A stretch of 64,000 nucleotides of DNA, taken from NCBI GenBank assembly GCA_046327915.1, contig JAXLXO010000004.1, positions 311,064 to 375,063 on the forward strand. Direction: 5' to 3'. Positions 11,634-31,178 of this stretch are shown piece by piece; positions within the stretch are counted from its first letter, which is position 1, and each line of letters starts with the position of its first letter. The notes below the pieces were generated by a model. The model searched no databases, was not told where the DNA came from, and worked only from the letters and a program-made list of their open reading frames with translations. This DNA comes from Candidatus Binatia bacterium. GTDB taxonomy: Bacteria > Desulfobacterota > Binatia > UBA12015. A program made the translations under genes and the position numbers.

Positions 11634-12238
11634 GCGAGCGCGGGGAAGAGCGACACGAGCCCGCTGCGGACCATCTCGACCGCGATCGCGCAGACGATCA
11701 GCCCCGAGACGCGCGTCGACACGTTGATCCCGGTGTCGCCGAGCATGCGGCGCAGCGGGTCGGCCGCACGCAGCGCGAGCCAGGTCGCGACCCCGACGGC
11801 GACGATGATCCCCGACAGGATCGCGTCGTCGGTGGGCGTGCAGCCGTTCCCGGTCGGGCCCTTGCTCGCGTAGACGATGACGCCGCTGATCACGCCGGGA
11901 CCGGCGAGCAGCGGGATCGCGAGCGGCACGATCGCGAAGCTGTCGCCCGGCGCGCCGAAGACCATCTTGACGCCGATCAGGAAGATCAGCAGCCCGCCCG
12001 CGATCATGAAGTCACCGATGCGGATGCCGAGCCCCGCGAGCAGTACGCGCCCGACGAAGAACGACACCAGCATGACGATCGTCACGGCGATGGCCGCCGT
12101 ACGTGCCGTGCCGGCACGTGCCGCGGCGTCGAGGTGCTGGCTGCGCGCCATGAACACGGGCACGCCCTCGAGCGGGTTGACGAGCACGAAGAGCGCGACG
12201 GCGATCTTCGCGAAGGGGGCGATCTCGGCTGCGGACAT
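11630..12238 (-). CDS. marC: MarC-family (UPF0056) integral membrane protein
   Basis: 203 aa, with 'VLVNPLEGVPVF' and 'IAGGLLIFLIGVKM' typical of MarC. ATGA overlap with the downstream gene. Confidence 0.65.
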   Translation of the reverse strand: MSAAEIAPFAKIAVALFVLVNPLEGVPVFMARSQHLDAAARAGTARTAAIAVTIVMLVSFFVGRVLLAGLGIRIGDFMIAGGLLIFLIGVKMVFGAPGDSFAIVPLAIPLLAGPGVISGVIVYASKGPTGNGCTPTDDAILSGIIVAVGVATWLALRAADPLRRMLGDTGINVSTRVSGLIVCAIAVEMVRSGLVSLFPALA

Positions 12239-13369: not shown

Positions 13370-13846
13370 CTAGAACCAGCTCGTGTCCGTCATCGCGCCC
13401 GGCACCAGTCGCGCGGTGACGTCGTGCGCCTCGTCGCGCACCATGATGTCCTTGCCGTCGGTCCAGACGCGCACGCGCTGCTTCGGGTAGCCGTCGATGT
13501 CGAGCTTCAGGTAGCCCTCGCCGTCGACCGCGTACGTGCCGGTCTTGCGCGTCCTCTGGTCGTCGATGAAGCGCACGGTCGCGGTGAAGCTGCCGTCGCT
13601 GCCGAAGCGGACGCCGACGCCGCTGATCACGAAGAAGAGCGCGCCGCCGGCGTCGAGCGTGTGCCACGCCGTGCCGGGAAGCGCGGGCAGCACGTTCGAC
13701 TCCTGTGCGACGGCGGTGGCGTCCATCGCCGGCGCGCGCAGCACCGCCGCGCACACGAGCGCGAAAAGCACGATCCGTGCAGCCGTCCTCGCGGCGGCGC
13801 GCGCCGGTCGATCGACGGCAGGGAAGGAAGTCCGGTGGTCGGTCAT
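13370..13846 (-). CDS. hypothetical small secreted protein (last gene of nar supercluster)
   Basis: 158 aa. N-terminal hydrophobic signal ([19 protein letters not shown]) and normal composition. ATGA overlap with the TehA-like gene. The Arg-rich 5' extension of ORF 13370..14725 was rejected. Confidence 0.5.
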
Positions 13847-14907
13847 TGCGCGCTCCTCGCGTGCTGTCGAAGGATGGTGTTCAGCATTCCCGCGAACGTC
13901 ACCAGCCACGCCGCGAGCGCCACGAAGACGAACACGCGCGGGATCGCGAGCAGGAACGGCTCGTCGATCGCGTGCGCGAGCTTGAACGTGCACGTGGTGT
14001 ACATGCCGAGCGGGAAGACCATGCCCCAGTAGCCGGGCTCGTACGCGAGCGGGTAACGCCGCACGACGTGGCGCCAGACGCCCATCACGAACAGCATCGG
14101 GATCCACCACGTCGCCGTCGCCCAGAACAGCAGCGTGAGTCCCTTCAGGAAGGGCAGCAGCGACGCGAGCAGCGGATCGGACGCCGCGTTGCCGATCACG
14201 ATCGCGCCGGCCAGCGTCGAGATCGCCATCGCGCCGGTGTCGATCCAGTACGCGGGGCCGGCGTCGGCCGGCTCGAAGCGCAGGAACATGTAGCGGAAGA
14301 AGATCAGCCCGATGATCCAGACGTAGAGCATGCCGCCCGCGAGCCACAGGGCCAGCGTCAGGAACAGCACCTGGTGCTCGTATCCGGGGAAACGGTCGTA
14401 CACCTGGCCGCCGAGCAGGGACACTCCCTGCGTCGCGACGACCGCGACCAGCCATCCGCCGTTGAGCCCGCGCTCGATCGGCGGCTTCTGCTCGTCCACG
14501 GTGAGCAGGGCCAGCACGCCGTAGAGCAGCAGCACCCAGAGCACCAGCGCGAGCAGCCAGAGCGCGGTCGCGATCTCCGGCACGTGCACCACGATCAGCA
14601 GCTGCGCACCGAGCACGCACGTCCCGGCGACGATCGTGAAGTAGCCGACGCCGCGCGCGTGATTGCCGAGGTCCGCGCGCACCGCCGCCGGATACCGCAC
14701 GAGGCGCGCGAGGTAGAGCACCCACAGCACGACGTAGGCGATCACGTTGACGGCGAGCAGCGCGACCGCGACCGGCACGAAGCCGAGCAGCTTGCTCGCG
14801 ATCGAGACGATCCCGGTCGCCATGACCAGCGCGAAGTACGCGGGGTTGAGCGTCTCGAGCCCGCTCGCGGCGGCCTGTGCCTTGCCGCGATCGGCGGCGG
14901 CAGCCAT
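13843..14907 (-). CDS. TehA/TDT-family (SLAC1-like) anion channel/transporter
   Basis: 354 aa, about 10 TM helices, very hydrophobic, with a typical TDT-family helix pattern (…[13 protein letters not shown]…, …[11 protein letters not shown]…, …[13 protein letters not shown]…). The start codon is 5 nt after the cytochrome c stop. Confidence 0.65.
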
Positions 14908-14912
14908 CGCGC

Positions 14913-15281
14913 TCACGGCGTCGCTCCTGCCGTCCTGCGGAATGCTTCGAGGTACGACAGCAGCGCGTCGAGCTGCTCGCCGGACAGCGTGCCGCCGTAC
15001 GCCATCATCGCCGAGCCCGGGACGCCGTTCAGGATCGCGCCGCGCAGCCGCGCGGCATCCGCGTCGCGCCAGAATCCGGCCGATGCGAAGTCGGGCGGCC
15101 TCGGGATCATGGTCACGCCGGCCGGACCGTCGCCTCGTCCACCGTCGCCGTGGCAGAACGCGCACCGGCTGCGGAACAGATCGCCGCCGAGCGCGAGCTG
15201 CGCCGGATCGGCGGTCTGCGCGTCTGCGGTGTGCGCGACGGCCGACACGACCAGCAGCGCCAGTGCGACGCGGCGGATCAC
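14913..15281 (-). CDS. class I mono-haem cytochrome c
   Basis: 'CAFCHG' haem-binding motif, distal Met region 'GSAMMAYGG', signal peptide. GTG start with a GTGA overlap on the ppiC-like stop. Confidence 0.7.
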
Positions 15282-16093
15282 GAACACCCCTGCGTGCCGC
15301 ACTGGCACGACGACTCGCCGTGCGCGGCGTCGACCGTGCGTGCTTCGGCGTCCAGACCCTCGACGTCCGCGGCGGCCACCAGATCGCGCACGAATTCCGC
15401 GGCCGCGGCGCGCCAGCGGCGGTCGAGCAGCCGCTCGCGCGCGAGACCGCGCGCCTCGCGCCACTCGAGCGGACGTCCCGGCGCACGCTCGTCGAGGCGC
15501 ACCACGTGGTAGCCGAAGCGCGTCCGCACCGGCGCGGGACAGACGTCGCCAGGCGCGAGGTGCTGCAGCACCGCCGCGAACTCCGGAACCGTGTCGCGCG
15601 CCGTCACCTGCCCGAGGCTGCCGCCGCTCTGCGCCGACGAGCAGCCGGAACGCTCGCGCGCGAGGTCGGCGAAGCGCGACGGATCGCGCGCCAGCTCCGC
15701 GATGCACTCGGCCGCGGCGCTGCACGCGCGCTCGAGCGCCGCGGAATCCGACGGCGGCGCGAGGAAGAGGATGTGCGACGCCTCGAACAGGTCGGGCGTG
15801 CGGTCGAGCTCGGGATGGCTGTCGTGCTCGGCGCGGCAGTCCGACTCGCTCGGCTCGTCGACCGCGACGTGGCGCACGACCAGCTCGTCGATCGCGCGCT
15901 GGCAGGCGCTCTCGTCGCGCTCGTCCGCGGCGACCAGCCCTTCGCGCGCGGCCGTCTGGCGCAGCACCTCGCGCACCACCAGAGCGCGCGCCGCGCGCAG
16001 CTCCGCGTCCTCGCGGCTCGCCGCGCGATGGTACTGCATCTCGCGCAGCACCTCGTCGTCGCCGATCGCGACCGCGTTCACGCGGAGCGCCAT
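15278..16093 (-). CDS. PpiC/parvulin-type peptidyl-prolyl isomerase (NifM-like)
   Basis: C-terminal rotamase domain '…[55 protein letters not shown]'. Overlaps the narI 3' end by 16 nt. Confidence 0.65.
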
Positions 16094-16812
16094 CCCGGTC
16101 CCTTCCGCGTCCGCGCACGATACGGCTCGCGCACGATCTGGTAGCGGCGGCCGAGGTACCACACCGGCGCGCTCCAGATGTGGATCAGCCGCGTGAACGG
16201 CACCAGCAGCACCACCGTCAAGCCGAGGACGATGTGCAGCTTGTAGACCAGCGGGATCGGCAGCAGCAGCTCCCACGCGTCGGCGCGGAACGTCACCAGG
16301 CGCTGCGCCCAGAACGCGGCGTGAAGCAGCGTCTGTCCCGACACGTGGTCCGCCCACGAGGCCGGCAGCGTCGCGAGCCCGATCGCCAGCTGCACCCAGA
16401 TGATCACGAGGATCAGCACGTCGGACCAGCTGCTCGAGCGCAGCACGCGCGCGTCGAAGAGCCTTCGGTGCAGCAGGATCGTCGTGCCGATGAAGCAGAT
16501 GGTGCCCGAGATGCCGCCGGCGAAGACCTCGAGGACGGCGTGCTCCTGCACGGTGAAGCCGACGCGCGTGTAGAGCGACACCGGCGTCAGCATGCCGGCG
16601 ACGTGGCCGAGCACCAGCGCGATCGCGGCGACGTGGAAGATGTTGCTGCCCCACACCAGCTGCCGCTTGCGCAGCATCTCGCTCGACCCGCTGCGCCACG
16701 TGTACTGCTCGCGCTCGAAGCGCAGCCAGCTGCCGACGAGGAACACCGTCACGCAGACGTACGGGTAGATGCCGAACAGGAAGCGCTGCAGCAGCTCGCT
16801 CGCGACGCTCAC
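16078..16812 (-). CDS. narI: respiratory nitrate reductase gamma subunit
   Basis: 244 aa, 5 TM helices, conserved 'FLFGIYPYV' N-terminus and His ligands. GTG start overlapping the narJ stop (GTGA). Confidence 0.85.
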   Translation of the reverse strand: MSVASELLQRFLFGIYPYVCVTVFLVGSWLRFEREQYTWRSGSSEMLRKRQLVWGSNIFHVAAIALVLGHVAGMLTPVSLYTRVGFTVQEHAVLEVFAGGISGTICFIGTTILLHRRLFDARVLRSSSWSDVLILVIIWVQLAIGLATLPASWADHVSGQTLLHAAFWAQRLVTFRADAWELLLPIPLVYKLHIVLGLTVVLLVPFTRLIHIWSAPVWYLGRRYQIVREPYRARTRKGPGWRSA

Positions 16813-17480
16813 GAGCACCTCCCCGCGCGCGTCGCGGCCGCAGCGTCGGCCGCTCCCGCGCTGGTGAAGTCGACCACCGGCTCCTCCCACTCGCGGTCGA
16901 GGCGCTCGAGCTCGCTTTCCTCGGTCGCGTCGACGGCCTGCTCGACGTCGCGCAGCGCCGCGCGATCGACGGCGTCCCCCGCGAGATCGATCAGCGCCTC
17001 GAGAACCGCCGCGTACGGCGACAGGCGCAGCTCGAGCTTGCGCCGCAGCGCCGCGAGGATCGGCGCCGCGTCGTCGAGCAGCGGGCGCGCGACGCTCTCC
17101 GGCGCGAGCGACAGGAACTCGCACAGCAGCGGCAGGTAGTCGGGCAGCTCGGTGGTCGACGGCTCGAGGCCGTTCTCGACGTACAGGCGGCGCAGGTCGA
17201 CCATCGCCTGGCCGCGCTCGCGCGCCTCGCCGTGCACGTGCTCGAAGAGGTGCAGCGAGCACGCGCGGCCGTGATCGAAGGTCGCGACCCACGCCTCCTC
17301 GAGGTCGAGCAGGGAGCCTTCGCGGAATCCCGCGAGGAGTCGCGCGACGCCGTCGCGCGCGTGCGCGGAGAGCCGCGGCTCCGCGGCGACGCGACGCTCG
17401 ATCTCGTCGACCGCGGCGAGCAGGTCGCTGCTCGGGTAGAGCAGCAGCGCGCCCAGCACCTTGCAGCTCGCGAGGCTCAC
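16809..17480 (-). CDS. narJ: nitrate reductase molybdenum cofactor assembly chaperone
   Basis: 'MSLASCKVLGALLLYPSSDLL…' is a NarJ/TorD-family N-terminus. GTG start overlapping the narH stop (GTGA). Confidence 0.8.
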   Translation of the reverse strand: MSLASCKVLGALLLYPSSDLLAAVDEIERRVAAEPRLSAHARDGVARLLAGFREGSLLDLEEAWVATFDHGRACSLHLFEHVHGEARERGQAMVDLRRLYVENGLEPSTTELPDYLPLLCEFLSLAPESVARPLLDDAAPILAALRRKLELRLSPYAAVLEALIDLAGDAVDRAALRDVEQAVDATEESELERLDREWEEPVVDFTSAGAADAAAATRAGRCS

Positions 17481-19000
17481 ATGACCTCGCTCGGCGTCCG
17501 GCGCCCGGCGCCGCCGCCGAAGAAGACGCTGCCGCGCGAGTCGGGCGCGTCGCAGCCGTTGCCGAAGGTGAAGCCGCACGCGCCGCGCAGCTCGTAGGCG
17601 TCCTCCGCGAGCTCGCGATGGCTGGTCGGGATCACGAAGCGGTCCTCGTAGTTCGCGATCGCGAGCAGGCGGTACATCTCCTCGATCTGCTGCCGCGACA
17701 GCCCGACGCGCGCGAGTACCTCGTCGTTGTCGCGTCCCTCGACGTGGCGGTCGCGCATGAACACCCGCATCGCGAACATGCGCTCGAGGGCGCGCACGAT
17801 CGCGGGCTCGTCGCCGGCCGAGAGCAGGTTCGCGAGATAGCGCACCGGGATGCGCAGCTTGCGGACGTCGGGCAGCGCGCCGTCGAAGCCGATCGCGCCC
17901 GACTCCGCGGACGCCTGGATCGGGCTCAGCGGCGGGCAGTACCAGACCATCGGCAGCGTCCGGTACTCGGGGTGCAGCGGGAACGCGATGCCCCACTCGA
18001 CGGCGAGCTTCCACACCGGCGAGCGCTGCGCCGACTCGATCCACGCCTCGGGAACGCCCGCGTCGCGCGCCGCCTGCTGCACGTCGGGATCGTTCGGGTC
18101 GAGGAACATCTCGAGCTGGGCCGCGTGCAGGTCGCGCTCGTCCGGGGTCGCCGCCGCCTGCTCGATGCGGTCGGCGTCGTAGAGCATGACGCCGAGATAG
18201 CGGATGCGTCCGACGCAGGTCTCCGAGCACACCGTGGGCAGCCCGGACTCGATGCGCGGGTAGCAGAAGATGCACTTCTCGGCCTTGCCCGAGCGCCAGT
18301 TGTAGTAGATTTTCTTGTATGGACAGCCCGACAGGCACATGCGCCAGCCGCGGCACTTGTCCTGGTCGATGAGGACGATGCCGTCCTCCTCGCGCTTGTA
18401 GATCGAGCCCGACGGACACGACGCGACGCAGGTCGGGTTCAGGCAGTGCTCGCACAGGCGCGGCAGGTACATCATGAACGTGTTCTCGAACTGCGCGACC
18501 ATGTCCTTCTCGACGCCTTCGAGGTTGGCGTCGCGACTGCGGTCGGCGAACGCGCCGCCGAGGTCGTCCTCCCAGTTCGCGCTCCACGTCACGCGCTCCA
18601 TGTGCTTGCCGGTCAGCAGCGAGATCGGGCGCGCGACCGGCACGTCCTCCGACTCCGGCGCGGACTGCAGCGTGCCGTAGTCGAAGGTGTACGGCTCGTA
18701 GTAGTCGTCCACTTCGGGCATGTGCGGGTTCGCGAAGATCTGCGCGAGCACGCGGAAGCGTCCGCCGAGACGCGGCACGAGCTTGCCGTCGGCGCGCCGC
18801 ACCCAGCCGCCGCGCCAGCGGCCCTGGTTCTCCCACTCCTTCGGGTAGCCGACGCCGGGCTTGGTCTCGACGTTGTTGAACCACGCGTACTGCACGCCGT
18901 CGCGGTTGGTCCACACGTTCTTGCAGGTCACCGAGCAGGTGTGGCAGCCGATGCACTTGTCGAGGTTCAGCACCATCATGATCTGGGCACGAACCTTCAT
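17477..19000 (-). CDS. narH: respiratory nitrate reductase beta subunit
   Basis: 508 aa, with four FeS cysteine clusters (CIGCHTCSVTC, CEHCLNPTCVASC, CRGWRMCLSGC, CIFCYPR). ATGA overlap with narG. Confidence 0.9.
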   Translation of the reverse strand: MKVRAQIMMVLNLDKCIGCHTCSVTCKNVWTNRDGVQYAWFNNVETKPGVGYPKEWENQGRWRGGWVRRADGKLVPRLGGRFRVLAQIFANPHMPEVDDYYEPYTFDYGTLQSAPESEDVPVARPISLLTGKHMERVTWSANWEDDLGGAFADRSRDANLEGVEKDMVAQFENTFMMYLPRLCEHCLNPTCVASCPSGSIYKREEDGIVLIDQDKCRGWRMCLSGCPYKKIYYNWRSGKAEKCIFCYPRIESGLPTVCSETCVGRIRYLGVMLYDADRIEQAAATPDERDLHAAQLEMFLDPNDPDVQQAARDAGVPEAWIESAQRSPVWKLAVEWGIAFPLHPEYRTLPMVWYCPPLSPIQASAESGAIGFDGALPDVRKLRIPVRYLANLLSAGDEPAIVRALERMFAMRVFMRDRHVEGRDNDEVLARVGLSRQQIEEMYRLLAIANYEDRFVIPTSHRELAEDAYELRGACGFTFGNGCDAPDSRGSVFFGGGAGRRTPSEVM

Positions 19001-22000
19001 CTTGCTGCTCCCTGCGCCTCGTCGCGCGCCGGTCCGCTGCCCCAGCGCGGCTCGCCGAGCTTGCGGATGACGACGGTCTCGTCGCGGTTCGCGCCGATCG
19101 TTCCGTAGTAGTTCCAGCCGTAGCTCAGGTGCGCGTAGCCGCCGATCATGTGCGTCGGCTTCGGGATCACGCGCGTCACCGAGTTGTGGATGCCGCGCGT
19201 TCCGGTCGCCTGCGTCTGCGGCGTGGCCACCAGCTTCTCCTGCGCGTGGTACATCATGCAGGTGCCGCGCATGACGCGCTGGCTGACGATCGCGCGCGCC
19301 GCGACCGCGCCGTTCACGTTCACCGCCTCGATCCAGTCGTTGTCGGCGATTCCCGCCTCGCGCGCCTCGTCCTCGTTGAGCCAGATCACGGGGCCGCCGC
19401 GCGCCAGCGTGAGCATCAGCAGGTTCTCGGTGAACGAGCTGTGGATCGACCACTTCTGGTGCGGCGTCAGGAAGTTCAGCACCAGCGTGCCGGGACCGCG
19501 CAGCTTCGGATCGCGCAGGTCGTCGAGAGCCAGCGTGTCGAGCGGCGGACGATAGGTCGCGAGCGCCTCGCCGAAGGCGCGCATCCACAGGTGGTCCTGG
19601 TAGAGCTCCTGCCGTCCGGACAGCGTGCGCCACGGGATCAGCTCGTGCACGTTGGTGTAGAACGCGGTGTAGCTGACGGTCTCGGAGTCGACGCCGCTCC
19701 AGATCGGCGACGTGATCACTTTTCTCGGCTGGGCCACGAGGTCGGCGAAGCGGATCACCTCCTCGCTGCGCGACGCCGCGAGGTGCCGGTGCTGCCGTCC
19801 CGTCTGGCGCTCGACCGACGCCCACGCGCGCACCGCGACCTGGCCGTTGGTCTCGGGCGACAGCGTCAGCACGGTCTCGCAGGCCTCGACGTCGCTGACG
19901 ATGCGCGGACGGTCGCGCGCGATCTCGTCGCCGCTGTCGCCGTTGAGCGCGCGCAGCATCGCGACCTCGTCGGTCGCCGGCCACGCGAAGCCCTTGGCGC
20001 CGATGCCGGGCTTGTCGACCAGCGGGCCGAGCGCCGTGAAGCGCGCGTACGTGTCCGGGTAGTGGCGCTCGACCACCGCGACGCCGGGCATGGTCCTGCC
20101 GGGCACGGGGTCGCACTCGCCCTTCTTCCAGTCCTTGACGTCGTACGGCTGCGCGAGCTCGCCGGGCGCGTCGTGCTGCACCGGTACGAGCACCGCGTCG
20201 TGCTCGACGCCGAGATGACCCGCGGTGCACTCGGAGAAGCGCCGCGCGATCCCCTTGAAGATCTCCCAGTCGGTGCGCGCCTCCCACACCGGATCGACCG
20301 CGGCGCCGAGCGGGTGCACGAACGGATGCAGGTCCGTCGAGCTGAGGTCGTTCTTCTCGTACCAGGTCGCCGCCGGCAGGACGACGTCGGAGTACATGCA
20401 CGTGCTCGACATGCGGAAGTCGAGCGTGACGAGAAGGTCGAGCTTGCCCTCGGGCGCGTCGCTCTCCCACTCGATCTCGCGCGGCGGCTCGAGGCCGCGC
20501 TCGACGACGTCGCGCGCCTGCACCGCGTTCTTCGCGCCGAGCAGGTGCTTCAGGAAGTACTCGTGACCCTTCGCGCTCGAGCCGAGCAGGTTCGCGCGCC
20601 ACACGAAGAGCATGCGCGGGAAGCTGGTCGGATGGTCGGGGCGCTCGCTCGCGAGGCGCAGCGCGCCCGACTTCAGCGCGTCCGCGACGTGCGCGCCCGG
20701 CGTCGCGCCCGAAGCCGCGATGTCACGCCCCACCTGCAGCGGATTCTGCGCGAGCTGCGGCGACGTCGGCAGCCAGCCCATGCGCTCCGCGCGCACGTTG
20801 AAGTCGATCAGGCTGCCGCCCCAGTCGCCGTCGGGTGCGGTCGGCGACAGCATCTCCGCCGGCGTCACCGTCTCGTAGCGGAACTGGTCGGTGTGCGCGT
20901 AGAAGTACGAGGTCGTGTTCATCTGGCGCGGCGGACGCGTCCAGTCGAGCGCGAACGCGAGCGTCGACCAGCCGACCAGCGGACGGATCTTCTCCTGCCC
21001 GACGTAGTGCGCCCAGCCGCCGCCGGGCTTGCCGACACAGCCGCACAGCACGAGCAGGTTGATGATCGCCCGATACGTCGTGTCGGTGTGGTACGCCTGA
21101 TTGACGCCGCAGCCGATGATGACCTTGGCGCGGCCATCGGTCTTCTCGGCGCTGTGCGCGAACTCGCGTGCGAGGTTGATCGCGATGCGGCGGTCGACGC
21201 CGGTGATCGCCTCCTGCCACGCCGGCGTGAACGGACGATCGGCGTCGTCGTACGTCGCCTCGTCGCCGGGCTCGAGTCCGCGCGGGACGCCGTAGCTCGC
21301 CAGCATCAGGTCGAGCACCGTCGCGACCGGAACCTCGCCGTCGCGCAGCTTCAGGCGACGCACCGGAACGCTGCGCTCGACCACGTGATCGGGCGCCGAC
21401 GCCTCGAAGCGCGGGAACGCAACGTTGGCGAAGCCGTCGCGGCGCTCCGCGACGCTCAGCGCGAGCTCGACCTCGTGGCCGTCGCGCGCGTCGCGCTGCT
21501 CGAGGTTCCATTTCTCCCCCGGGCTCCAGCGGAAGCCGATCGAGCCGTTCGGCACCACGACGTCGCCGCTCTTCGCGTCGAGGCCGACCGTCTTCCAGTC
21601 CGGGTGCTCGTCCTGCGCGAGCGCGCCGTCGAAGTCGGCCGCGCGCAGCATTCGGCCGGGAACCCAGCGATCCCCTTGCCGGTCGAGACGCACCAGCATC
21701 GGCAGGTCGGAGAAGCGGCGCGCGTAGTCGACGAAGTACGGCACCTGCCGGTCGACCCAGAACTCCTTCAGCACGACGTGCCCGACCGCGAGCGCGAGCG
21801 CCGCGTCGGTGCGCTGCCGCGGCCGCACCCACAGGTCGGCGAACTTCGCCGCCTCGTTGAAGTCCGGTGAGACGACGACGGTCTTGGTGCCCTTGTAACG
21901 AGCCTCGACGTAGAAGTGCGCGTCGGGCGTGCGCGTCTGCGGCACGTTCGAGCCCCACAGCACGAGGAACGCGGCGTCGTACCAGGCGGCGCTCTCGGGC

Positions 22001-22710
22001 ACGTCGGTCTGCTCGCCCCAGGTCATCGGCGAGCTCGGCGGCAGGTCGCAGTACCAGTCGTAGAAGCTGAGGCAGGTGCCGCCGATCAGCGACAGGAAGC
22101 GCGTCCCGGCTGCGAACGACACCATCGAGAACGCGGGGATCGGCGTGAAGCCCGCGACGCGGTCCGGACCCCACTTCTCGATCGTGTGCACGGCGGCGGC
22201 GGCGATCATCTCGTTCGCCTCCTGCCACGACACGCGCACGAAGCCGCCGCGTCCGCGCACGCGCTTGTAGGACGCCGCGCGCTCCGGATCGTCGGCGATG
22301 CTGCGCCACGCCTCGACCGGATCCATCGCCGCGCGCGCCGCGCGCCACAGCTCGACCAGACGGCGGCGCACCAGCGGATACTTGACGCGGTTTCCGCTGT
22401 ACAGGTACCAGGACGCGCTCGCTCCGCGCGGACAGCCGCGCGGCTCGTGGTTCGGCAGGTCCGCCCGCGTGCGCGGGTAGTCGGTCGCCTGCATCTCCCA
22501 GGTGACGAGCCCGTTCTTGACGAACACCCGCCAGCTGCACGAGCCGGTGCAGTTCACGCCGTGCGTCGAGCGCACGATCTTGTCGTGGTCCCAGCGGTTC
22601 CGGTAGCCGTCCTCCCAGCTGCGGTCCTCGCGCGTGACGACGCCGAGATCGCCGGCGAACGTGCCGACGTTCTTGCGGAAGAACAGCAGACGGTCGAGCA
22701 GCAGGCTCAC
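18997..22710 (-). CDS. narG: respiratory nitrate reductase alpha subunit
   Basis: 1237 aa. N-terminus 'MSLLLDRLLFFRKNVGTFAGD…WEDGYRNRWDHDKIVRSTHGVNCTGSCSW' matches the NarG FeS0 H-x3-C-x3-C motif. Collinear with NarG throughout. Confidence 0.9.
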   Translation of the reverse strand: MSLLLDRLLFFRKNVGTFAGDLGVVTREDRSWEDGYRNRWDHDKIVRSTHGVNCTGSCSWRVFVKNGLVTWEMQATDYPRTRADLPNHEPRGCPRGASASWYLYSGNRVKYPLVRRRLVELWRAARAAMDPVEAWRSIADDPERAASYKRVRGRGGFVRVSWQEANEMIAAAAVHTIEKWGPDRVAGFTPIPAFSMVSFAAGTRFLSLIGGTCLSFYDWYCDLPPSSPMTWGEQTDVPESAAWYDAAFLVLWGSNVPQTRTPDAHFYVEARYKGTKTVVVSPDFNEAAKFADLWVRPRQRTDAALALAVGHVVLKEFWVDRQVPYFVDYARRFSDLPMLVRLDRQGDRWVPGRMLRAADFDGALAQDEHPDWKTVGLDAKSGDVVVPNGSIGFRWSPGEKWNLEQRDARDGHEVELALSVAERRDGFANVAFPRFEASAPDHVVERSVPVRRLKLRDGEVPVATVLDLMLASYGVPRGLEPGDEATYDDADRPFTPAWQEAITGVDRRIAINLAREFAHSAEKTDGRAKVIIGCGVNQAYHTDTTYRAIINLLVLCGCVGKPGGGWAHYVGQEKIRPLVGWSTLAFALDWTRPPRQMNTTSYFYAHTDQFRYETVTPAEMLSPTAPDGDWGGSLIDFNVRAERMGWLPTSPQLAQNPLQVGRDIAASGATPGAHVADALKSGALRLASERPDHPTSFPRMLFVWRANLLGSSAKGHEYFLKHLLGAKNAVQARDVVERGLEPPREIEWESDAPEGKLDLLVTLDFRMSSTCMYSDVVLPAATWYEKNDLSSTDLHPFVHPLGAAVDPVWEARTDWEIFKGIARRFSECTAGHLGVEHDAVLVPVQHDAPGELAQPYDVKDWKKGECDPVPGRTMPGVAVVERHYPDTYARFTALGPLVDKPGIGAKGFAWPATDEVAMLRALNGDSGDEIARDRPRIVSDVEACETVLTLSPETNGQVAVRAWASVERQTGRQHRHLAASRSEEVIRFADLVAQPRKVITSPIWSGVDSETVSYTAFYTNVHELIPWRTLSGRQELYQDHLWMRAFGEALATYRPPLDTLALDDLRDPKLRGPGTLVLNFLTPHQKWSIHSSFTENLLMLTLARGGPVIWLNEDEAREAGIADNDWIEAVNVNGAVAARAIVSQRVMRGTCMMYHAQEKLVATPQTQATGTRGIHNSVTRVIPKPTHMIGGYAHLSYGWNYYGTIGANRDETVVIRKLGEPRWGSGPARDEAQGAAR

Positions 22711-22817
22711 GGCGCCGGGCTCCGGTGAGCCGGACCCGTCGCGAACCGCGGAGCGCGATCGCCTGCCGAACGTTGCAGCTTCATCGCCGCCGCCAAGCTA
22801 CCACCGACCTGTCGATG

Positions 22818-22837
22818 CGCGAAGAACAGAATTCGCG
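22818..22837. promoter_or_regulatory. inverted repeat CGCGAA-N8-TTCGCG between nasA-like stop and narG start
   Basis: Seen directly: 'cgcgaagaacagaattcgcg', 2 nt after the nasA-like stop, in a 128-bp gap. Confidence 0.3.
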
Positions 22838-22838
22838 T

Positions 22839-25172
22839 TCACGCCGGAGTCTTCGTCGTGTCGCCGTACGTGCGGGACGAGAACGGCTCGTTGGTCGCTC
22901 CCGTCAGCTCCTCGAGCCGGCTGCGCAGCCAGCGCGGCGGCTCGCCGAAGCTCAGCCTCCGCAGCGCGACCGGCGACGACTTGAAGTGCGGCTGCTTGCT
23001 GACAGCATCGCGCGCGTACCACGTGTGCGTGTTGGCCGACTGGTCGGCGCCGCCGTAGTGGAACGGCGCGAACACCTCGCCACGGCGCACCGTGTCGACC
23101 ACCATCGCGATCGCCTCCGAGCGTCCGTGCGGCGAACGGATCTCGACCGCGTCGCCGAGCTCGATGCCGAGACCCGCCGCGTCCTCGGGGTGGATCTCCA
23201 CGTACACGGCCGGGGCGTGCGCGTTCAGCACGTCGGAGCGCGCCGTCTTGGTGCGGGTGTGGAAGTGGTAGACGAGCCGGCCGGTGTTGAGCAGCAGCGG
23301 ATACTCGTCGGAGACCGGATTCGGGTGCGCGTGCCAGTGCACCGGGCGAAGGATCGCCTTGCCGGCCGGATCGGCGCGCCGGTACTCCGCCGGCGACGTG
23401 CCGCGCCCGGTGTAGAAGTCGACGCCGAAGCTCTCGCAGGCGTCCGCGTCGGTCCAGAAGTGCAGATCCTCGTAGAGCCTCTCCGCCCCGCGCGGGTACT
23501 TCTCGTTGCAGGGCCAGCGCACCGCGCCCATCTCGAGGATCAGCTCGTACGTCATGCCGGAGTAGTCGCAGCCGCGGCCCTTCGAGACCTTGCGCCACTC
23601 GTCGAACGCCGCGCGCGGCTCCTGGTACGGCAGCAGCGACTTGCCGTCGCGGTCCTTGAAGCCGAGGCGGTTCGCGATCTCGACGAAGACGTCGAAGTCG
23701 CTGCGCGCCTCCCCCGGCGGGTCCACCGCCTTGAGCAGCAGATTGACGCTGCGATCCGCGTTGGTGACGCAGCCGCTCTTCTCGCCCCACATCGCCGCGG
23801 GGAAGTAGATGTCGGCGAAGTCGACCGTCTCGGCGTCGACGAACGGATCCTGCACGACGAGGAAGAGCTTGTTCAGGATCGCCGCCGTCCGGTTGCGGTC
23901 GGGCACGCTGACGATCGGATTGGTTCCGATCACCCACATGAACTCGATCTCGCCGCGCTCGGCCATCTCGAGCATGGTGAGGATGTCCTTCGGGTCCTCC
24001 GGCCGGAAGCGGTCGAAGTCGATGTTCCAGATCTCGCACAGCTCGCGCATCTGCGGCTCGCTGTGCGGATTCCGGTACGCGGGATACGAGCCGCCGGCTC
24101 CGGTCTCGCGGTTGTTCATCGCGGACGGCTGGCCCGCCATGAGCAGCGGACCGGTGCCCGGCTTGCCGATGGCGCCGGTCAGCAGGTGGACGACGTTGAT
24201 CAGCGACGACGCCGCGGTCGCGCCGATGCTCTGGTAGAAGCCCATCAGCGCGGTCGACACCATCTTCGGCGTCGTTCCGATCCACTCCGCCGCGGTCTCC
24301 AGCTGCGCCTGCGGGATGCCGCAGATCGCGGCGACGCGGTCGGGCGGATACTCGCGCGCCACGGCCGCGACGTCGTCGAACCCGATCGTGTGCTGCGCGA
24401 CGAAGTCACGGTCGACCTGGCCGCGCGCGATCAGCAGGTGGATGATCCCGTTCATCAGCGCGACGTTGGTTCCCACCTTCACCTGCAGATGAAGGTCGGC
24501 GCCCTGCCGAACCGTCGGGGTGGTGCGCGGATCGACCACGATGATCCGTCCGCCGTTCTTCTGCCGCGCCGACAGCATGCGCTCCCAGAGCACCGTCTGC
24601 GTCTCGGCGACGTTGTGTCCGTAGAGGCAGAGCAGGTCGGCCTGGTCGACGTCGGCATAGGATGCGACCGGCCCGTCCGAGCCGAAGGTCGCCGTCAGCG
24701 CCGTCGCCGCGCTCGACGTGCAGAGCCTGGTGTTGCCGTCGATGTTCGACGACTGCAGCCCGCCGCGCCACATCTTCGCCAGCGCGTAGAACTCCTCGAG
24801 CATCAGCTGGCCGGAGCTGTAGCAGGCGAGATTCTGGTGCCCGGACGCCCACGCCGCGCGAAACTTCTCCACGAAGAAGTCCATCGCCTCGGACCAGCCG
24901 ACCGGCTGCAGCGGGTCGGACTTCCGGCGGCGGATCATCGGGGTCGTGCCGCGCCGCTTCGCACCGTTGGCGATCCAGCAGTGCTCGCCCTTCGGGCCGA
25001 GATGTCCGGCGTTGACGGGATGGCTAGTCGTGCCGCGAACGCCGACGATCGCGCGGTCCTTCACCGCGATCTCCAGGCCGCAGCCGTTCGAGCACAGCAG
25101 ACAGGCGGAGTGAACCCAGGCGTCGGGCTCTCCCTGGATGCCGACGTTCACGTCTCTTCGAGGCTGCATCAC
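22839..25172 (-). CDS. cytoplasmic MopB-family nitrate reductase catalytic subunit (assimilatory NasA/NarB-type)
   Basis: 777 aa, no Tat signal. N-terminal 4Fe-4S 'CLLCSNGCG'. NasA/NarB-like segments 'FMWVIGTNP', 'NTGRLVYHFHTRTKT' and 'FAPFHYGG'. Confidence 0.7.
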   Translation of the reverse strand: MMQPRRDVNVGIQGEPDAWVHSACLLCSNGCGLEIAVKDRAIVGVRGTTSHPVNAGHLGPKGEHCWIANGAKRRGTTPMIRRRKSDPLQPVGWSEAMDFFVEKFRAAWASGHQNLACYSSGQLMLEEFYALAKMWRGGLQSSNIDGNTRLCTSSAATALTATFGSDGPVASYADVDQADLLCLYGHNVAETQTVLWERMLSARQKNGGRIIVVDPRTTPTVRQGADLHLQVKVGTNVALMNGIIHLLIARGQVDRDFVAQHTIGFDDVAAVAREYPPDRVAAICGIPQAQLETAAEWIGTTPKMVSTALMGFYQSIGATAASSLINVVHLLTGAIGKPGTGPLLMAGQPSAMNNRETGAGGSYPAYRNPHSEPQMRELCEIWNIDFDRFRPEDPKDILTMLEMAERGEIEFMWVIGTNPIVSVPDRNRTAAILNKLFLVVQDPFVDAETVDFADIYFPAAMWGEKSGCVTNADRSVNLLLKAVDPPGEARSDFDVFVEIANRLGFKDRDGKSLLPYQEPRAAFDEWRKVSKGRGCDYSGMTYELILEMGAVRWPCNEKYPRGAERLYEDLHFWTDADACESFGVDFYTGRGTSPAEYRRADPAGKAILRPVHWHAHPNPVSDEYPLLLNTGRLVYHFHTRTKTARSDVLNAHAPAVYVEIHPEDAAGLGIELGDAVEIRSPHGRSEAIAMVVDTVRRGEVFAPFHYGGADQSANTHTWYARDAVSKQPHFKSSPVALRRLSFGEPPRWLRSRLEELTGATNEPFSSRTYGDTTKTPA

Positions 25173-25413
25173 CTTCTCCGTGTTCGTCCTGCGGGACGAC
25201 GCTTCTCGACGACGCCGGGGACGGCGTCGAGAGGTCTTGCAACGCGGGCCCCGGATCTCTCCGCCGACCTTCGGCCGAGTCTTCGCCCGGCGTGAGCGCC
25301 TTGTATTGCGGAATCGCGCGGCGATCTTTCAGAATCCTGCGCGACGTCGAGGCGGCCGCGAGAGATGCGAAGCTGGAACCGGCTCCACGCGGCGTGCTAC
25401 AGCGGCGTCCCCG

Positions 25414-26766
25414 ATGGCCAGCGCATCCGAGGCGTCAAGCAGTGCTGCGGCGGCCCGCGAGGAAGAGCGGACCGAGCTGGCGGCGGATCGCCGGGATCTC
25501 GTCCGGCTCGCTCTCGTCGCGATTCCCGCCGGAGCGCTGACCGGCCTCCTGGGTGCCGCCTTCCGCATGGTGCTCGACGCCGCCGGGACGTGGCGTCTCG
25601 ATCTCGTGCGGTGGTCGAGCACCCTCGGTGCGTGGGGCGTGGCCGTGCCGATCGTCGTCGTCGCGGCATGCGCGGCGATCGCACGCGCGCTCGTGCGGAT
25701 CGCGCCGGTGGCCGGCGGCAGCGGCGTGCAGCACGTCGAGGCCGTCGCGCGCGGACAGGCCGAGCCGGCACCACCCGTGGTGCTGCCCGTCAAGTTCATC
25801 GGAGGATCGCTCGCGCTGGGCTCGGGCCTCGCGCTCGGACGCGAAGGACCGACGGTGCAGATGGGCGCGGTCGTCGGCGAGGCGCTCGCGCAGTGGGCCC
25901 GGCTGCCGATCGAGGACGTGCGCCGCATGTCCACCGCGGTCGCGGGCGCCGGCCTCGGCGTGGCGTTCTCGGCGCCGCTCGGCGGCGCGACGTTCGCGTT
26001 CGAGGAGGTCGCGCGGCGCTTCGATCTGCGGCTCGTCGTCGCGACCCTGCTGTCCGGCGCCACGGCGGCCGCGGTCGCGTGGTCGCTGATCGGCAATGCG
26101 CCCGACTTCGCGGTCCGTCCGCCGCCGCCGCCCGCGTGGCACGTCGCCGTCCCCGTACTCGTGTTCGGCCTGCTGCTCGGCCTCGCGGGCGTGGCCTACA
26201 ACAGGCTCGTGGTCGCGCTGCTCGATGCGGCCGACCGCTGGCCGCGCGTGCCGGCCGAGGCGCGTGCCGCGCTCGTCGGCGCGCTCTTCGGCCTGCTCCT
26301 CTGGGTCGAGCCGTCGCTGGTGGGCGGCGGCGACGCCGTCAATCAACGGATCCTCGACGGCGCGGTGCCGATCGCCACGATCGGCACGATCGCCGTGGCG
26401 CGCTGGCTGCTCGGCCCCGTCAGCTACGCTCCTGGCGTTCCGGGCGGCCTGTTCGCGCCGCTGCTGCTGGTCGGGTCGGCCGCCGGAGCGCTGTTCGCGT
26501 CGGCGGGGAACCACCTCGTGCCGGCGCTCGGGCTCGACCCGACGGCCTTCGCCATCGTCGGGATGGCGACGTTCTTCGCGGCCGTCGTGCGGGCGCCGCT
26601 CACCGGCATCGTGCTCATCGTCGAGATGACCGCGACGACGACCCAGGTGGTGCCGATGCTCGCGGCATCGACGGCCGCGGTGATCGCGGCGACGCTCCTG
26701 CGTGGCGAGCCGGTCTACGACACGCTGCGCCTGCGCATGCTGAGCCGCACGACCGACCGCCGCTGA
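25414..26766 (+). CDS. ClC-family anion channel/H+ antiporter
   Basis: 'GSGVQ', 'GREGP', 'GGLFAP' selectivity-filter-like motifs and about 10-12 TM helices. Start chosen at MASASE (ORF 25138.. has an Arg-rich junk 5' part). Divergent from the nasA-like gene. Confidence 0.75.
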   Translation: MASASEASSSAAAAREEERTELAADRRDLVRLALVAIPAGALTGLLGAAFRMVLDAAGTWRLDLVRWSSTLGAWGVAVPIVVVAACAAIARALVRIAPVAGGSGVQHVEAVARGQAEPAPPVVLPVKFIGGSLALGSGLALGREGPTVQMGAVVGEALAQWARLPIEDVRRMSTAVAGAGLGVAFSAPLGGATFAFEEVARRFDLRLVVATLLSGATAAAVAWSLIGNAPDFAVRPPPPPAWHVAVPVLVFGLLLGLAGVAYNRLVVALLDAADRWPRVPAEARAALVGALFGLLLWVEPSLVGGGDAVNQRILDGAVPIATIGTIAVARWLLGPVSYAPGVPGGLFAPLLLVGSAAGALFASAGNHLVPALGLDPTAFAIVGMATFFAAVVRAPLTGIVLIVEMTATTTQVVPMLAASTAAVIAATLLRGEPVYDTLRLRMLSRTTDRR

Positions 26767-27706: not shown

Positions 27707-29085
<1,379 letters not shown>

Positions 29086-29089
<4 letters not shown>

Positions 29090-30567
29090 GCGGAGTCCGC
29101 CTGCGCCACCTGCGTCCCCTGCGCCGGAGGCAGGTGGATCGCCATTTCGGTGCCCCGGCCGCGCTCGCTGCGAACCTCGATCCATCCGCCGGCATCCTGC
29201 ACGATGCCTTCGGCGATCGCGAGCCCGAGGCCGGTCCCCTCGCCGGGGCCCTTGGTCGTGAAGAAGGGCTCGAACACGTGCGGCAGATCCTCGGCCGCGA
29301 TGCCCTCGCCCTCGTCGGCGATCACGATGCGCACGTAGCGGCCCTCGGGTCCGCCGCGCACCGTCGGCGGCGTCGCACGCCGCTCCTCGACGCTCACGCG
29401 CACGCGGCCGCCCTCGTGGCTCGCCTGCACGGCGTTGAGGACGACGTTGGTCAGCACCTGCTGCGCCTCGCCGGCGTCGAGGCGCACGACCACCGGGGAC
29501 ACGGGCGCGTCCACCTCGATGGCGACGTCGCGCGAAGACGCGATCGGGTTCAGCATCTCGGCCGCGGTGCGCACGCACTGCGCGACGTTCACCGCGCCCA
29601 TGCGCGTGCTGCGCCGGCGCGAGAGATCGAGCAGCTGGCGGATCATGTCGGTCATGCGCGACGCCTGCTCGCCGATGACGCGCGCGTGCGCCCGCGTCTG
29701 CGCGTTCAGCTGCAGGTCGGAGCCGATCATCTTGGCGCGCGCCGACACGACGTTGAGCGGCGTGCCGAGCTCGTGTGCGATGCCCGACGCGAAGCGTCCG
29801 ACGCTCGCCAGGCGCTCCGAGTGCCGCATGCGCTCGAGCGCCGCGAGCTTCGCCTCGGTCTCCGCGGCGAGGCGCGCGTTGGTCTCGGCGATCTTCTGGC
29901 ACATGTCGTCGATCTCGGCGCCGAGCTCGCCCATCTCGTCGCGCTGCTTCAGCGACAGGCAGCCCGCGAAGTCGCCTTTGCCCGCGCGCCGCGCGCGGTC
30001 GCGCAGCAGCTCCACGGGACGTCCGACGAACCAGTAGCCCAGAAACAGAGCGGTGAACGCGGACGCGAGCACCACGCACAGCGTGGTGACGAAGATCGCC
30101 GTCTGCGACGTGCGCACGAACGAGACCTCGCGGTAGAGCCGCCGCGTGATCTCCAGCGCCTCCGTGCTGCCGTTGCCCATCGGCACGAAGTTCACGCGCC
30201 GCGGGTCGTCGCCGTGCTCGTCGACCAGCAGCATCAGCACCGCGCCCGCCTCGAGTGCTTGACGGTCCTGCGGCAGCAGTTCGGCGTATCCCTGCTGCCC
30301 GGGCTTCGCCGCGAGGTCGATCCAGCGGACGTCGACGTTCTCGAGCATGTCGGCGACCTTCTCGACGATCTCCTGCGTCTTGACGGCGCCGTCGCGCTTC
30401 CACATCTCCTGGATCAGGAGCCGCACGGCCGCGCCGCGCGTGGCGCTGCCCTGCAGGTCGCCCTCGAAGAGGATGACCTGCTTGCGGCTCAGGTAGAACG
30501 CATAGGCCGCCATCACGACGAAGATCGTCGCGGTCAGCGCGAAGGTGATCTTGCGGGCGAGCTTCAT
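29086..30567 (-). CDS. sensor histidine kinase (two TM, periplasmic sensor, HAMP, HisKA, HATPase)
   Basis: H-box 'ASGIAHELGTPLN', G-boxes 'DEGEGI' and 'GTGLGLAIAEG'. Two TM segments flank a roughly 140-aa periplasmic domain. The low-complexity 5' part of ORF 29086..31614 was rejected. Confidence 0.8.
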
Positions 30568-30695
30568 GCCTGGGATTCGGGGCAGCCGCGGTCCGGCGGC
30601 GATCTCCGGCGCGGCGGCCGGATCATTGCACGTCGGATCGGATGAGCTCCACTCCCGGGCGAAGGTGTCTGCCGGGACGGGCCACACGGCGAACC

Positions 30696-31178
30696 TCAGG
30701 CCACGTTCACGTTCAGTTGAAGGCTCGCGGCGCCTCTTCGCTCCTTCGTGCCCGACGAGGCCGGAGCCGACGTCAGAAAGAAGCTCTCCACGGCGCGATC
30801 CTGCTGTTGAGCGCTTTTGGAAGACCTCGGAGCGAGAAGCATCCAGCGCAGCTTCTCGCCGTCGAGCTCGAGCGCGTCGCAGATCGTGTCGAAGGCGAAC
30901 AACGAGTCGCGGCCGCGGCGCGAGATCCAGGCGCGCGCCTGCATGGCGACGCGCGCACGATGGCTCGGCTTGATCCCCCGTCCCGACAGGCAGGTGATCG
31001 CGTCGACGAGCACCGCGCGCATCAGCGCGAGCTCGCCGACGCTCTCGGTGGTCGGAGCGGAGGTCGAGAGAGGAGGCGTCTCCCCGTCCACCAGATCGGC
31101 CGGGGAGACGCCCAGGGAGGAAGCGTCGACACCGTTGGGGAGCGGTGCGGACGTGGGCGAGGCCGTCGCCGCGTCCAT
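30696..31178 (-). CDS. hypothetical protein (possibly first gene of the two-component operon)
   Basis: The C-terminal 110 aa has normal composition (…LMRAVLVDAITCLSGRGIKPSHRARVAMQARAWISRRGRDSLFAFDTICDALELDGEKLRWMLL…). The N-terminal part is Ser/Thr/Pro-rich. Start is uncertain. Confidence 0.3.
   Translation of the reverse strand: MDAATASPTSAPLPNGVDASSLGVSPADLVDGETPPLSTSAPTTESVGELALMRAVLVDAITCLSGRGIKPSHRARVAMQARAWISRRGRDSLFAFDTICDALELDGEKLRWMLLAPRSSKSAQQQDRAVESFFLTSAPASSGTKERRGAASLQLNVNVA

Follow-up and report, generated by a model that had tools for sequence, protein, structure and literature searches.

A 64,000-nt stretch of the genome of Candidatus Binatia bacterium (assembly GCA_046327915.1, contig JAXLXO010000004.1, positions 311,064 to 375,063), hereafter the window, carries on its minus strand a gene for a molybdoenzyme of the MopB/dimethyl sulfoxide (DMSO)-reductase superfamily, located immediately upstream of the respiratory nitrate reductase gene narG. 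A preliminary description of the locus had taken the product for a cytoplasmic nitrate reductase of the assimilatory NasA/NarB type. The comparative analysis conducted here indicates that the Binatia protein is not a classical assimilatory enzyme and assigns it, on the basis of motifs and tree position, to a Nas-like clade that retains three cysteines at its N-terminal iron-sulfur (Fe-S) site. The open reading frame (ORF), its relevant parts and the interval that separates it from narG are:

22839..25172, minus strand: MopB-type molybdoenzyme ORF, 777 aa from the GTG at 25172, 776 aa from the likely ATG at 25169
24975..25121, minus strand: N-terminal Fe-S domain, residues 18-66, with C24, C27, C31 and K61 conserved and Gly59 at the fourth-Cys position
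24717..24722, minus strand: predicted molybdenum (Mo)-ligand Cys151 and Thr152, clade signature RLC-T
22842..22958, minus strand: family-specific C-terminal tail of ~40 aa, SFGxPxxWLxxRLxELxG...
22711..22838, minus strand: MopB-narG gap of 128 nt; neither a terminator-like nor a sigma-70-like site found, RNA structure not significant

The ORF is a genuine gene, and its G+C content at third codon positions (0.94) is coding-type and on par with that of the neighbouring genes. Translation probably starts at the ATG at 25169 and not at the GTG at 25172, because the relatives of the protein begin with MQPRID. Three Pfam domains (Molybdop_Fe4S4, Molybdopterin and Molydop_binding) are recognized with 198, 99.5 and 49.8 bits, each above its cut-off, and these domains, together with a full-length alignment with NapA structures, place the protein in the MopB/DMSO-reductase superfamily. 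Residues 1-23 are polar and lead directly into the cluster motif at residue 24, and, as previously remarked, there is no twin-arginine (Tat) leader; the protein is predicted to be a cytoplasmic enzyme with a molybdenum-bis(pyranopterin guanine dinucleotide) (Mo-bisPGD) cofactor. The tail of about 40 aa is not present in periplasmic nitrate reductases (Nap), in formate dehydrogenases (Fdh) or in the more distant subgroup of the three-cysteine clade. A helix at residues 747-756 of this tail was predicted by an AlphaFold2 model (18-sequence alignment, mean predicted local distance difference test score of 49.7) that was kept out of fold searches because of its poor quality.

The preliminary description had credited the protein with an N-terminal CxxCxxxC [4Fe-4S] site. 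The three cysteines of this motif (C24-x2-C27-x3-C31) are indeed in place and conserved in the examined relatives, but the canonical fourth cysteine of such sites (LCxKG) is replaced by Gly59 in the Binatia protein and in every relative examined, and the family alignment reads G-H/R-L-G-P-K-G around this position. Lys61 is invariant among the 23 clade members of the tree alignment. C65 is peculiar to the Binatia protein: 119 of the 120 top relatives have G, A, S or T at the equivalent position, with one unmatched by the pattern. His57 was discarded as a substitute fourth ligand, given that the distant subgroup has arginine there. As read from these alignments, the Fe-S site of the clade departs from those of the assimilatory nitrate reductases (Nas), Nap and Fdh alike.

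The predicted Mo ligand, Cys151, lies within N-T-R-L-C-T and aligns with Cys140 of D. desulfuricans NapA and with the cysteine of RLC in the Nas group; 119 of the 120 top relatives share RLCT. The ligand is followed by Thr152, whereas a methionine (the C-M dyad) occupies this position in all compared Nas and Nap sequences. The signatures of the four groups, given as the residues at the Mo ligand followed by the two second-sphere motifs, are:

Three-cysteine clade: C-T after the Mo-ligand Cys; FGxDGP; GQPSAMxNRE
Nas: C-M (RLCM) after the Mo-ligand Cys; FGxDGP or DxV; GQPNAMGGRE
Nap: C-M after the Mo-ligand Cys; D-E-P; GQPNACGG
Fdh: C/U-H after the Mo-ligand Cys; none matching; RGQNNVQG

The second-sphere motifs of the Binatia protein, FGSDGP and GQPSAMNNRE, are near the Nas consensus without being identical to it and, on the strength of this comparison with Nas, Nap and Fdh, the catalytic pocket would be Nas-like except for the substitution of methionine by threonine. 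The NasA/NarB assignment of the protein thus holds in part, its active-site motifs being nearer to those of Nas than to those of Nap or Fdh, but the four-Cys site and the C-M dyad are missing. One of the hallmarks first reported, FAPFHYGG, does lie near the C-terminus (residues 701-708), but it is not diagnostic of Nas because the PFH(Y/W/F) motif is shared by Nas, Fdh and other MopB groups.

Scoring against NCBIfam models, none of which reached its equivalog cut-off, gave the following values for the Binatia protein:

Fdh-alpha (TIGR01591): 472 bits, cut-off 666, best-scoring model
NasC: 404 bits, cut-off 1100
NasA_Halo: 384 bits, cut-off 1000
NapA: 326 bits, cut-off 904
arsenite_ox_L (AioA): 158 bits, cut-off 359

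These cut-offs are uninformative with regard to Nas membership, because the models are narrow and P0134, whose Nas motif is canonical, likewise falls below the NasC and NasA thresholds. Among solved structures, D. desulfuricans NapA (2NAP), a monomeric enzyme, matches best, over the full length and with E=1e-111. That TIGR01591 comes out as the top model would suit a cytoplasmic formate dehydrogenase of the FdhF/FdsA type, a reading that we consider almost certainly wrong: its 472 bits lie below the cut-off, the protein has C-T in place of the selenocysteine/cysteine-histidine dyad (C/U-H), its AGQPSAM lacks the arginine of RGQNNVQG, and Fdh sequences form a separate clade.

The Binatia protein shares 68-77% identity with more than 120 database proteins, whose hosts are Alpha- and Betaproteobacteria, Acidobacteriota, Nitrospira, Verrucomicrobiota, Myxococcota and Bacteroidota. 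NCBI labels such relatives 'molybdopterin oxidoreductase family protein' or 'nitrate reductase', and Joint Genome Institute (JGI) pipelines label some of them 'ferredoxin-nitrate reductase'. Neighbour-joining trees (200 bootstraps) were computed on 125-133 MopB cores, with representatives taken from a search of 1.84 billion proteins and with E. coli NapA and FdhF, D. desulfuricans NapA and four nirB-adjacent metagenome MopB proteins as references, the latter providing context-validated Nas controls. The bootstrap values obtained were:

Nas together with the four nirB-linked controls: 0.98
Nap: 0.99
Fdh: 1.00
Family of the Binatia protein: 1.00
Wider three-cysteine clade: 1.00
Three-cysteine clade joined by two sister sequences with four Cys and C-M: 0.94

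The wider clade comprises the family of the Binatia protein and a subgroup at 44-49% identity hosted by Streptomyces, Rhodococcus, Deinococcus, Staphylococcus saprophyticus, Acidobacteriota and Gemmatimonadota. Since its own clade is fully supported and the others are separate, these neighbour-joining bootstraps put the Binatia protein neither in Fdh nor within the Nas or Nap clades. It belongs, as far as sequence can tell, to a distinct lineage defined by the loss of the fourth cysteine and the change of methionine to threonine, and this widespread clade is seen in the trees to branch beside Nas, Nap and Fdh and inside none of them. The proposed NasA/NarB membership is contradicted by this result, as the Nas clade holds all four nirB-linked controls and excludes the protein, and the concern that it might group with formate dehydrogenases is dispelled by its position outside the Fdh clade. 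NapA is excluded as well, by the missing Tat leader, the differing motifs, the separate Nap clade and the lack of nap genes among the window ORFs scanned.

The genomic context of the clade was surveyed in 79 loci from reference genomes and 80 from metagenomes. About 121 of these loci belong to the three-cysteine clade, a number that is not deduplicated and includes many contigs of metagenome-assembled genomes. A tblastn scan found nirB adjacent to the MopB gene in none of the ~121 clade loci, as opposed to 6 of the 38 Nas-like loci that are more distantly related, and neither a nitrite reductase (NIR_SIR) nor a nitrate-ABC family figures among the 25 commonest families in 149 flanking ORFs. 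Within the window, Pfam searches of about 40 ORFs and a tblastn search of the whole stretch with E. coli NarK, NirB, NirD and NirC detected neither a nitrite reductase or NirB/NasC-type partner nor NarK or any nap gene, which agrees with the earlier remark that no NasC/NirB-type or nitrite reductase gene is adjacent. The Binatia gene does not belong to a cluster of nitrate-assimilation genes.

NarB is a cytoplasmic, ferredoxin-dependent enzyme made of a single polypeptide, and a genuine assimilatory enzyme of this type, giving nitrite for assimilation, would be consistent with several features of the Binatia protein. It too is cytoplasmic and single-subunit, its second-sphere motifs are Nas-like, and its relatives bear the 'ferredoxin-nitrate reductase' label in JGI pipelines. 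We nonetheless deem such an enzyme improbable, in view of the position of the protein outside the Nas clade and its controls, the missing four-Cys cluster and C-M dyad, the lack of nirB next to the gene in the ~121 clade loci, the lack of NIR_SIR and nitrate-ABC families among the 25 commonest of the flanking ORFs, and the lack of a nitrite reductase among the window ORFs scanned.

The gene stands instead beside a respiratory system, in a window of about 72% G+C that also encodes a sigma-54 activator, MlaA and Lnt, features that speak for a Gram-negative host of high G+C content and against an actinobacterium. The neighbouring genes are:

18997..22710, minus strand: narG, respiratory nitrate reductase alpha subunit (TIGR01580, 1909 bits, cut-off 1084)
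17477..19000, minus strand: narH, its ATG overlapping the narG stop
16809..17480, minus strand: narJ, its GTG overlapping the narH stop
16078..16818, minus strand: narI
15278..16081, minus strand: PpiC-type peptidyl-prolyl isomerase, its start overlapping the narI stop
13843..14916, minus strand: SLAC1/TehA-type anion channel, ~360 nt beyond ppiC
25429..26766, plus strand: CLC-type anion channel or antiporter, divergent from the MopB gene

The preliminary description had called the co-location with narG unusual, and the survey bears this out: narG, narH, narJ or narI adjoins the MopB gene in none of the ~121 clade loci, and the nearest nar operons carry no MopB gene. The locus with the closest NarG relative (L088, 75% identity) has a divergent CLC gene opposite narG, followed by narGHJI and SLAC1, and the next one examined (L089) has the order narGHJI-SLAC1; the SLAC1 protein of the window is 69.5% identical to the channel of the former and 62% to that of the latter. 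From these layouts, the ancestral unit would have been a CLC gene divergent from narGHJI-SLAC1, and the MopB gene is probably a lineage-specific insertion between CLC and narG, because the nearest nar operons do not carry it and because an uncoupled gap of 128 nt separates it from narG. The extent of this gap, from the TGA at 22839-22841 to the GTG of narG at 22710, is exactly as first described.

The same type of channel accompanies the clade elsewhere, with an identity of 41-51% between the SLAC1 protein of the window and those adjoining other MopB genes of the clade. The closest MopB relative (L111, 79% identity) shows the order MopB-SLAC1-DyP and no nar genes, and in a member of the distant subgroup (L129), from an organism of 43.5% G+C, a homologous SLAC1 gene lies next to MopB, again with no nar genes. 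The Nas-like pocket and these SLAC1 links, observed at two loci, point to nitrate or nitrite as substrate or product.

Transcription of the MopB gene into narG, as one unit with nar, is plausible from the makeup of the gap, in which RNA structure is not significant (z = -0.64). The narG-H-J-I-ppiC genes are chained by 4-nt start/stop overlaps, but the MopB gene is not translationally coupled to narG. FNR-type boxes (TTGAT-N4-ATCAA) were not found in the relevant intergenic regions, which share no sequence similarity with those of L088, and a CRP/FNR-like palindrome located upstream of narG in L088 is missing from the window. A sigma-54-like (-24/-12) site at 25238-25253 was rejected, as it contains three mismatches and matches of this quality are no more frequent than chance predicts (151 found against 168 expected).

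Taken together, these data lead us to suggest, at about even chances, that the Binatia protein is a cytoplasmic oxyanion reductase of the three-cysteine clade, probably acting on nitrate and probably co-transcribed with nar. Such a soluble, single-subunit Mo-bisPGD oxidoreductase would take electrons from a small soluble partner not encoded next to its gene. The partner would reduce the N-terminal Fe-S cluster, which would be held by C24, C27 and C31 only and would most likely be a [3Fe-4S] cluster or else a [4Fe-4S] cluster with a non-cysteine fourth ligand. From the cluster, electrons would pass by way of the conserved Lys61 to the pterin and on to the Cys151-ligated Mo centre, where the oxyanion would be reduced. 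Nitrate is the best guess for this oxyanion, because the second-sphere motifs are Nas-like and nar-type SLAC1 channels accompany the clade elsewhere. Having been inserted between the CLC gene and narG, the MopB gene would now head the ancestral unit and probably be read into narG.

Several observations weigh against this proposal. The threonine beside the Mo ligand, combined with the altered Fe-S site, could reflect another substrate or catalytic direction, and no member of the clade has been characterized, the available names being generic only. The phylogeny is a neighbour-joining one and its deep branching has bootstrap values below 0.5. The SLAC1 linkage occurs in only 2 of the ~121 clade loci, the adjacency of MopB and nar is confined to this one genome and could be incidental, and searches for FNR, sigma-54 and CRP-like elements identified no promoter for the unit. 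Finally, the most recurrent neighbours of the close family have no evident connection with nitrate: genes for DyP peroxidase and/or encapsulin adjoin MopB in 25 of 81 close-family loci from several phyla, in variable orientations.

This last association is the basis for a different reading, in which the protein is a stress oxidoreductase belonging to a DyP/encapsulin system, with a non-nitrate substrate (another oxyanion or an oxidized small molecule) and an accidental position next to narG. DyP peroxidase (13), encapsulin (7) and DUF488 (5) head the Pfam census of the flanking ORFs, in which other families occur three times at most. Two loci display tight same-strand arrangements, namely DyP-Enc-MopB-SDR in Paralcaligenes (L081, 8041-13186) and an encapsulin gene 3 nt away from MopB in L084 (8437-12337), and L012, L079, L007 and L018 are among the further loci with these neighbours. 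Stress-type genes recur also in other contexts, with HSP20, BON, DUF308 and Hva1 genes around MopB in Nitrospira, and catalase, OsmC and MarR nearby in Archangium. Distant clade members are plasmid-borne in Deinococcus, Hymenobacter, Rhodococcus and Curtobacterium, and also in Staphylococcus, where the plasmid carries stress-type genes.

The window, on the other hand, has neither a DyP nor an encapsulin gene, and the SLAC1 and nar links favour nitrate or nitrite. The DyP proteins beside the relatives carry a canonical C-terminal targeting peptide of the SLGIGSLKK type, to which the MopB tail bears no resemblance. Comparison by eye of the MopB tail (...EPFSSRTYGDTTKTPA) and the DyP tail (...SLGIGSLKKEAGYE) gave no support for the former as an encapsulin targeting peptide, since it has no LxIGSLK-type motif, and the window has no encapsulin. 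Moreover, comparison of DyP-linked loci across phyla gave identities of 78-91% for the MopB proteins and 62-86% for the adjacent DyP proteins. Because these cross-phylum identities are unusually high, the linkage suggests a horizontally mobile module, and co-transfer within such a module may explain it, which weakens the inference of a shared function and common chemistry. On balance, we consider a stress oxidoreductase rather unlikely. No literature joining MopB enzymes to DyP or encapsulin was found.

The Nitrospira orthologues differ from the rest in their N-terminus. All four of them (L012 9820-10000, L046, L059 and L083) have a conserved in-frame Tat leader, SRRQFLKvSAGTAAAAA, separated by a linker of ~45 aa from the MQPRID start used elsewhere. 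This leader implies a predicted export to the periplasm, in these nitrite oxidizers only. Such a location, together with a three-Cys site like those of AioA and IdrA, would accord with an enzyme working in the oxidative direction, from nitrite to nitrate or to another oxyanion from its reduced form, by means of a high-potential [3Fe-4S] cluster as in arsenite oxidase. We regard this direction as highly improbable for the Binatia protein. Its Mo-ligand cysteine is kept, unlike in AioA, the similarity to AioA is weak (158 bits, as listed above), there is no adjacent Rieske or cytochrome partner, and re-oxidation in the cytoplasm of the product of Nar would be futile.

A broader account might accommodate much of the above, and we hold it to be possible while leaning against it. 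The three-cysteine clade would consist of horizontally mobile Nas-like enzymes with a [3Fe-4S]-type cluster and Cys-ligated Mo, tied to DyP/encapsulin and SLAC1, exported by the Tat pathway in Nitrospira and with a chemistry and physiology distinct from both assimilatory and respiratory nitrate reduction, and one such enzyme would have been recruited here to the head of nar.

Comparison with known systems helps to delimit what is particular to the Binatia enzyme. It resembles NasA, NasC and NarB in its cytoplasmic location, its Fe-S, Mo and dinucleotide-binding domains, the cysteine in N-x-R-L-C, and the FGxDGP and GQP(S/N)AM..RE motifs, and differs from them in its separate clade, the glycine in place of the fourth cysteine, the threonine in place of methionine, the extra tail of ~40 aa and the absence, in the loci scanned, of any linkage of the clade to nirB/nirA or nitrate uptake genes. 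With D. desulfuricans NapA (2NAP/2JIM) it shares a single subunit of ~720-780 aa and a Cys-ligated Mo, but that enzyme has a Tat leader, four cysteines, the C-M dyad, D-E-P and GQPNACGG, and a clade of its own. AioA and IdrA also retain three cysteines at the cluster site, a likeness known here at the level of sequence, and their overall similarity to the Binatia protein is low; in AioA, which is periplasmic and paired with a Rieske protein, no residue of the protein binds Mo, whereas the Binatia protein has Cys151 and no adjacent Rieske gene. The family 1 encapsulins loaded with DyP are linked to one third of the close relatives, but the window has no counterpart of them.

A superfamily review describes an N-terminal [3Fe-4S] cluster as distinctive of AioA and IdrA, which have no protein Mo ligand, and reports one also in ActB (PMC10100899). 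The reviews consulted do not describe a three-Cys site paired with a Nas-like Mo pocket in which a cysteine is the ligand; if true, such a pairing of cluster and Cys-ligated Mo would represent a new combination of cofactors for the Nas/Nap/Fdh branch. The protein itself probably works as a soluble Nas-type oxyanion reductase, to judge from its pocket. Relatives abound in soil and wastewater metagenomes, some of them labelled nitrate reductase or ferredoxin-nitrate reductase, and if the clade is not assimilatory, surveys based on such labels would over-count the potential for nitrate assimilation. The recurrent DyP-encapsulin linkage, in turn, is a lead on the physiological role of those nanocompartments. 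The presence of SLAC1 and CLC genes around nar operons suggests that these channels are possibly an alternative to NarK, not found in the window, for the movement of nitrate and nitrite; we found no literature on SLAC1 with narGHJI.

Other features of these loci deserve mention. In the distant subgroup, the MopB gene of Actinobacteria and Deinococcus is tightly coupled to a downstream gene for a ~160-aa helical protein (L090 9256-9777; L092 9391-9870), and that of Acidobacteriota and Gemmatimonadota to one for a ~330-aa protein with CxxC...CxxC (L055 12192-13196), for which the one overextended ORF scanned gave no Pfam match; neither partner has a homologue in the window. In the window itself, the PpiC-type gene (15278-16081, minus strand) is translationally coupled to narI, and there is no such gene in the nar operon of L088. 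An ORF of ~158 aa (13370-13846, minus strand), without a Pfam match and with a signal-peptide-like N-terminus, shares an ATGA overlap with the SLAC1 stop, and a 710-aa ORF (9501-11633, minus strand) has a coding-type GC3 and likewise no Pfam match. Genes for a sigma-54-dependent response regulator and a HAMP histidine kinase occupy 27707-30723 on the minus strand, 2.5 kb upstream of the MopB gene. The L089 locus encodes a NarI fused to a cytochrome c domain (11026-12078) and, after SLAC1, a nosZ/nosD cluster (14935-18847). The two closest relatives of the Binatia MopB, both at 79% identity (L111 969-3327 and L122 820-3295), are split across several frames in their metagenome contigs and represent either assembly errors or pseudogenes. 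In L122, as in L039, the MopB gene is surrounded by flagellar genes.

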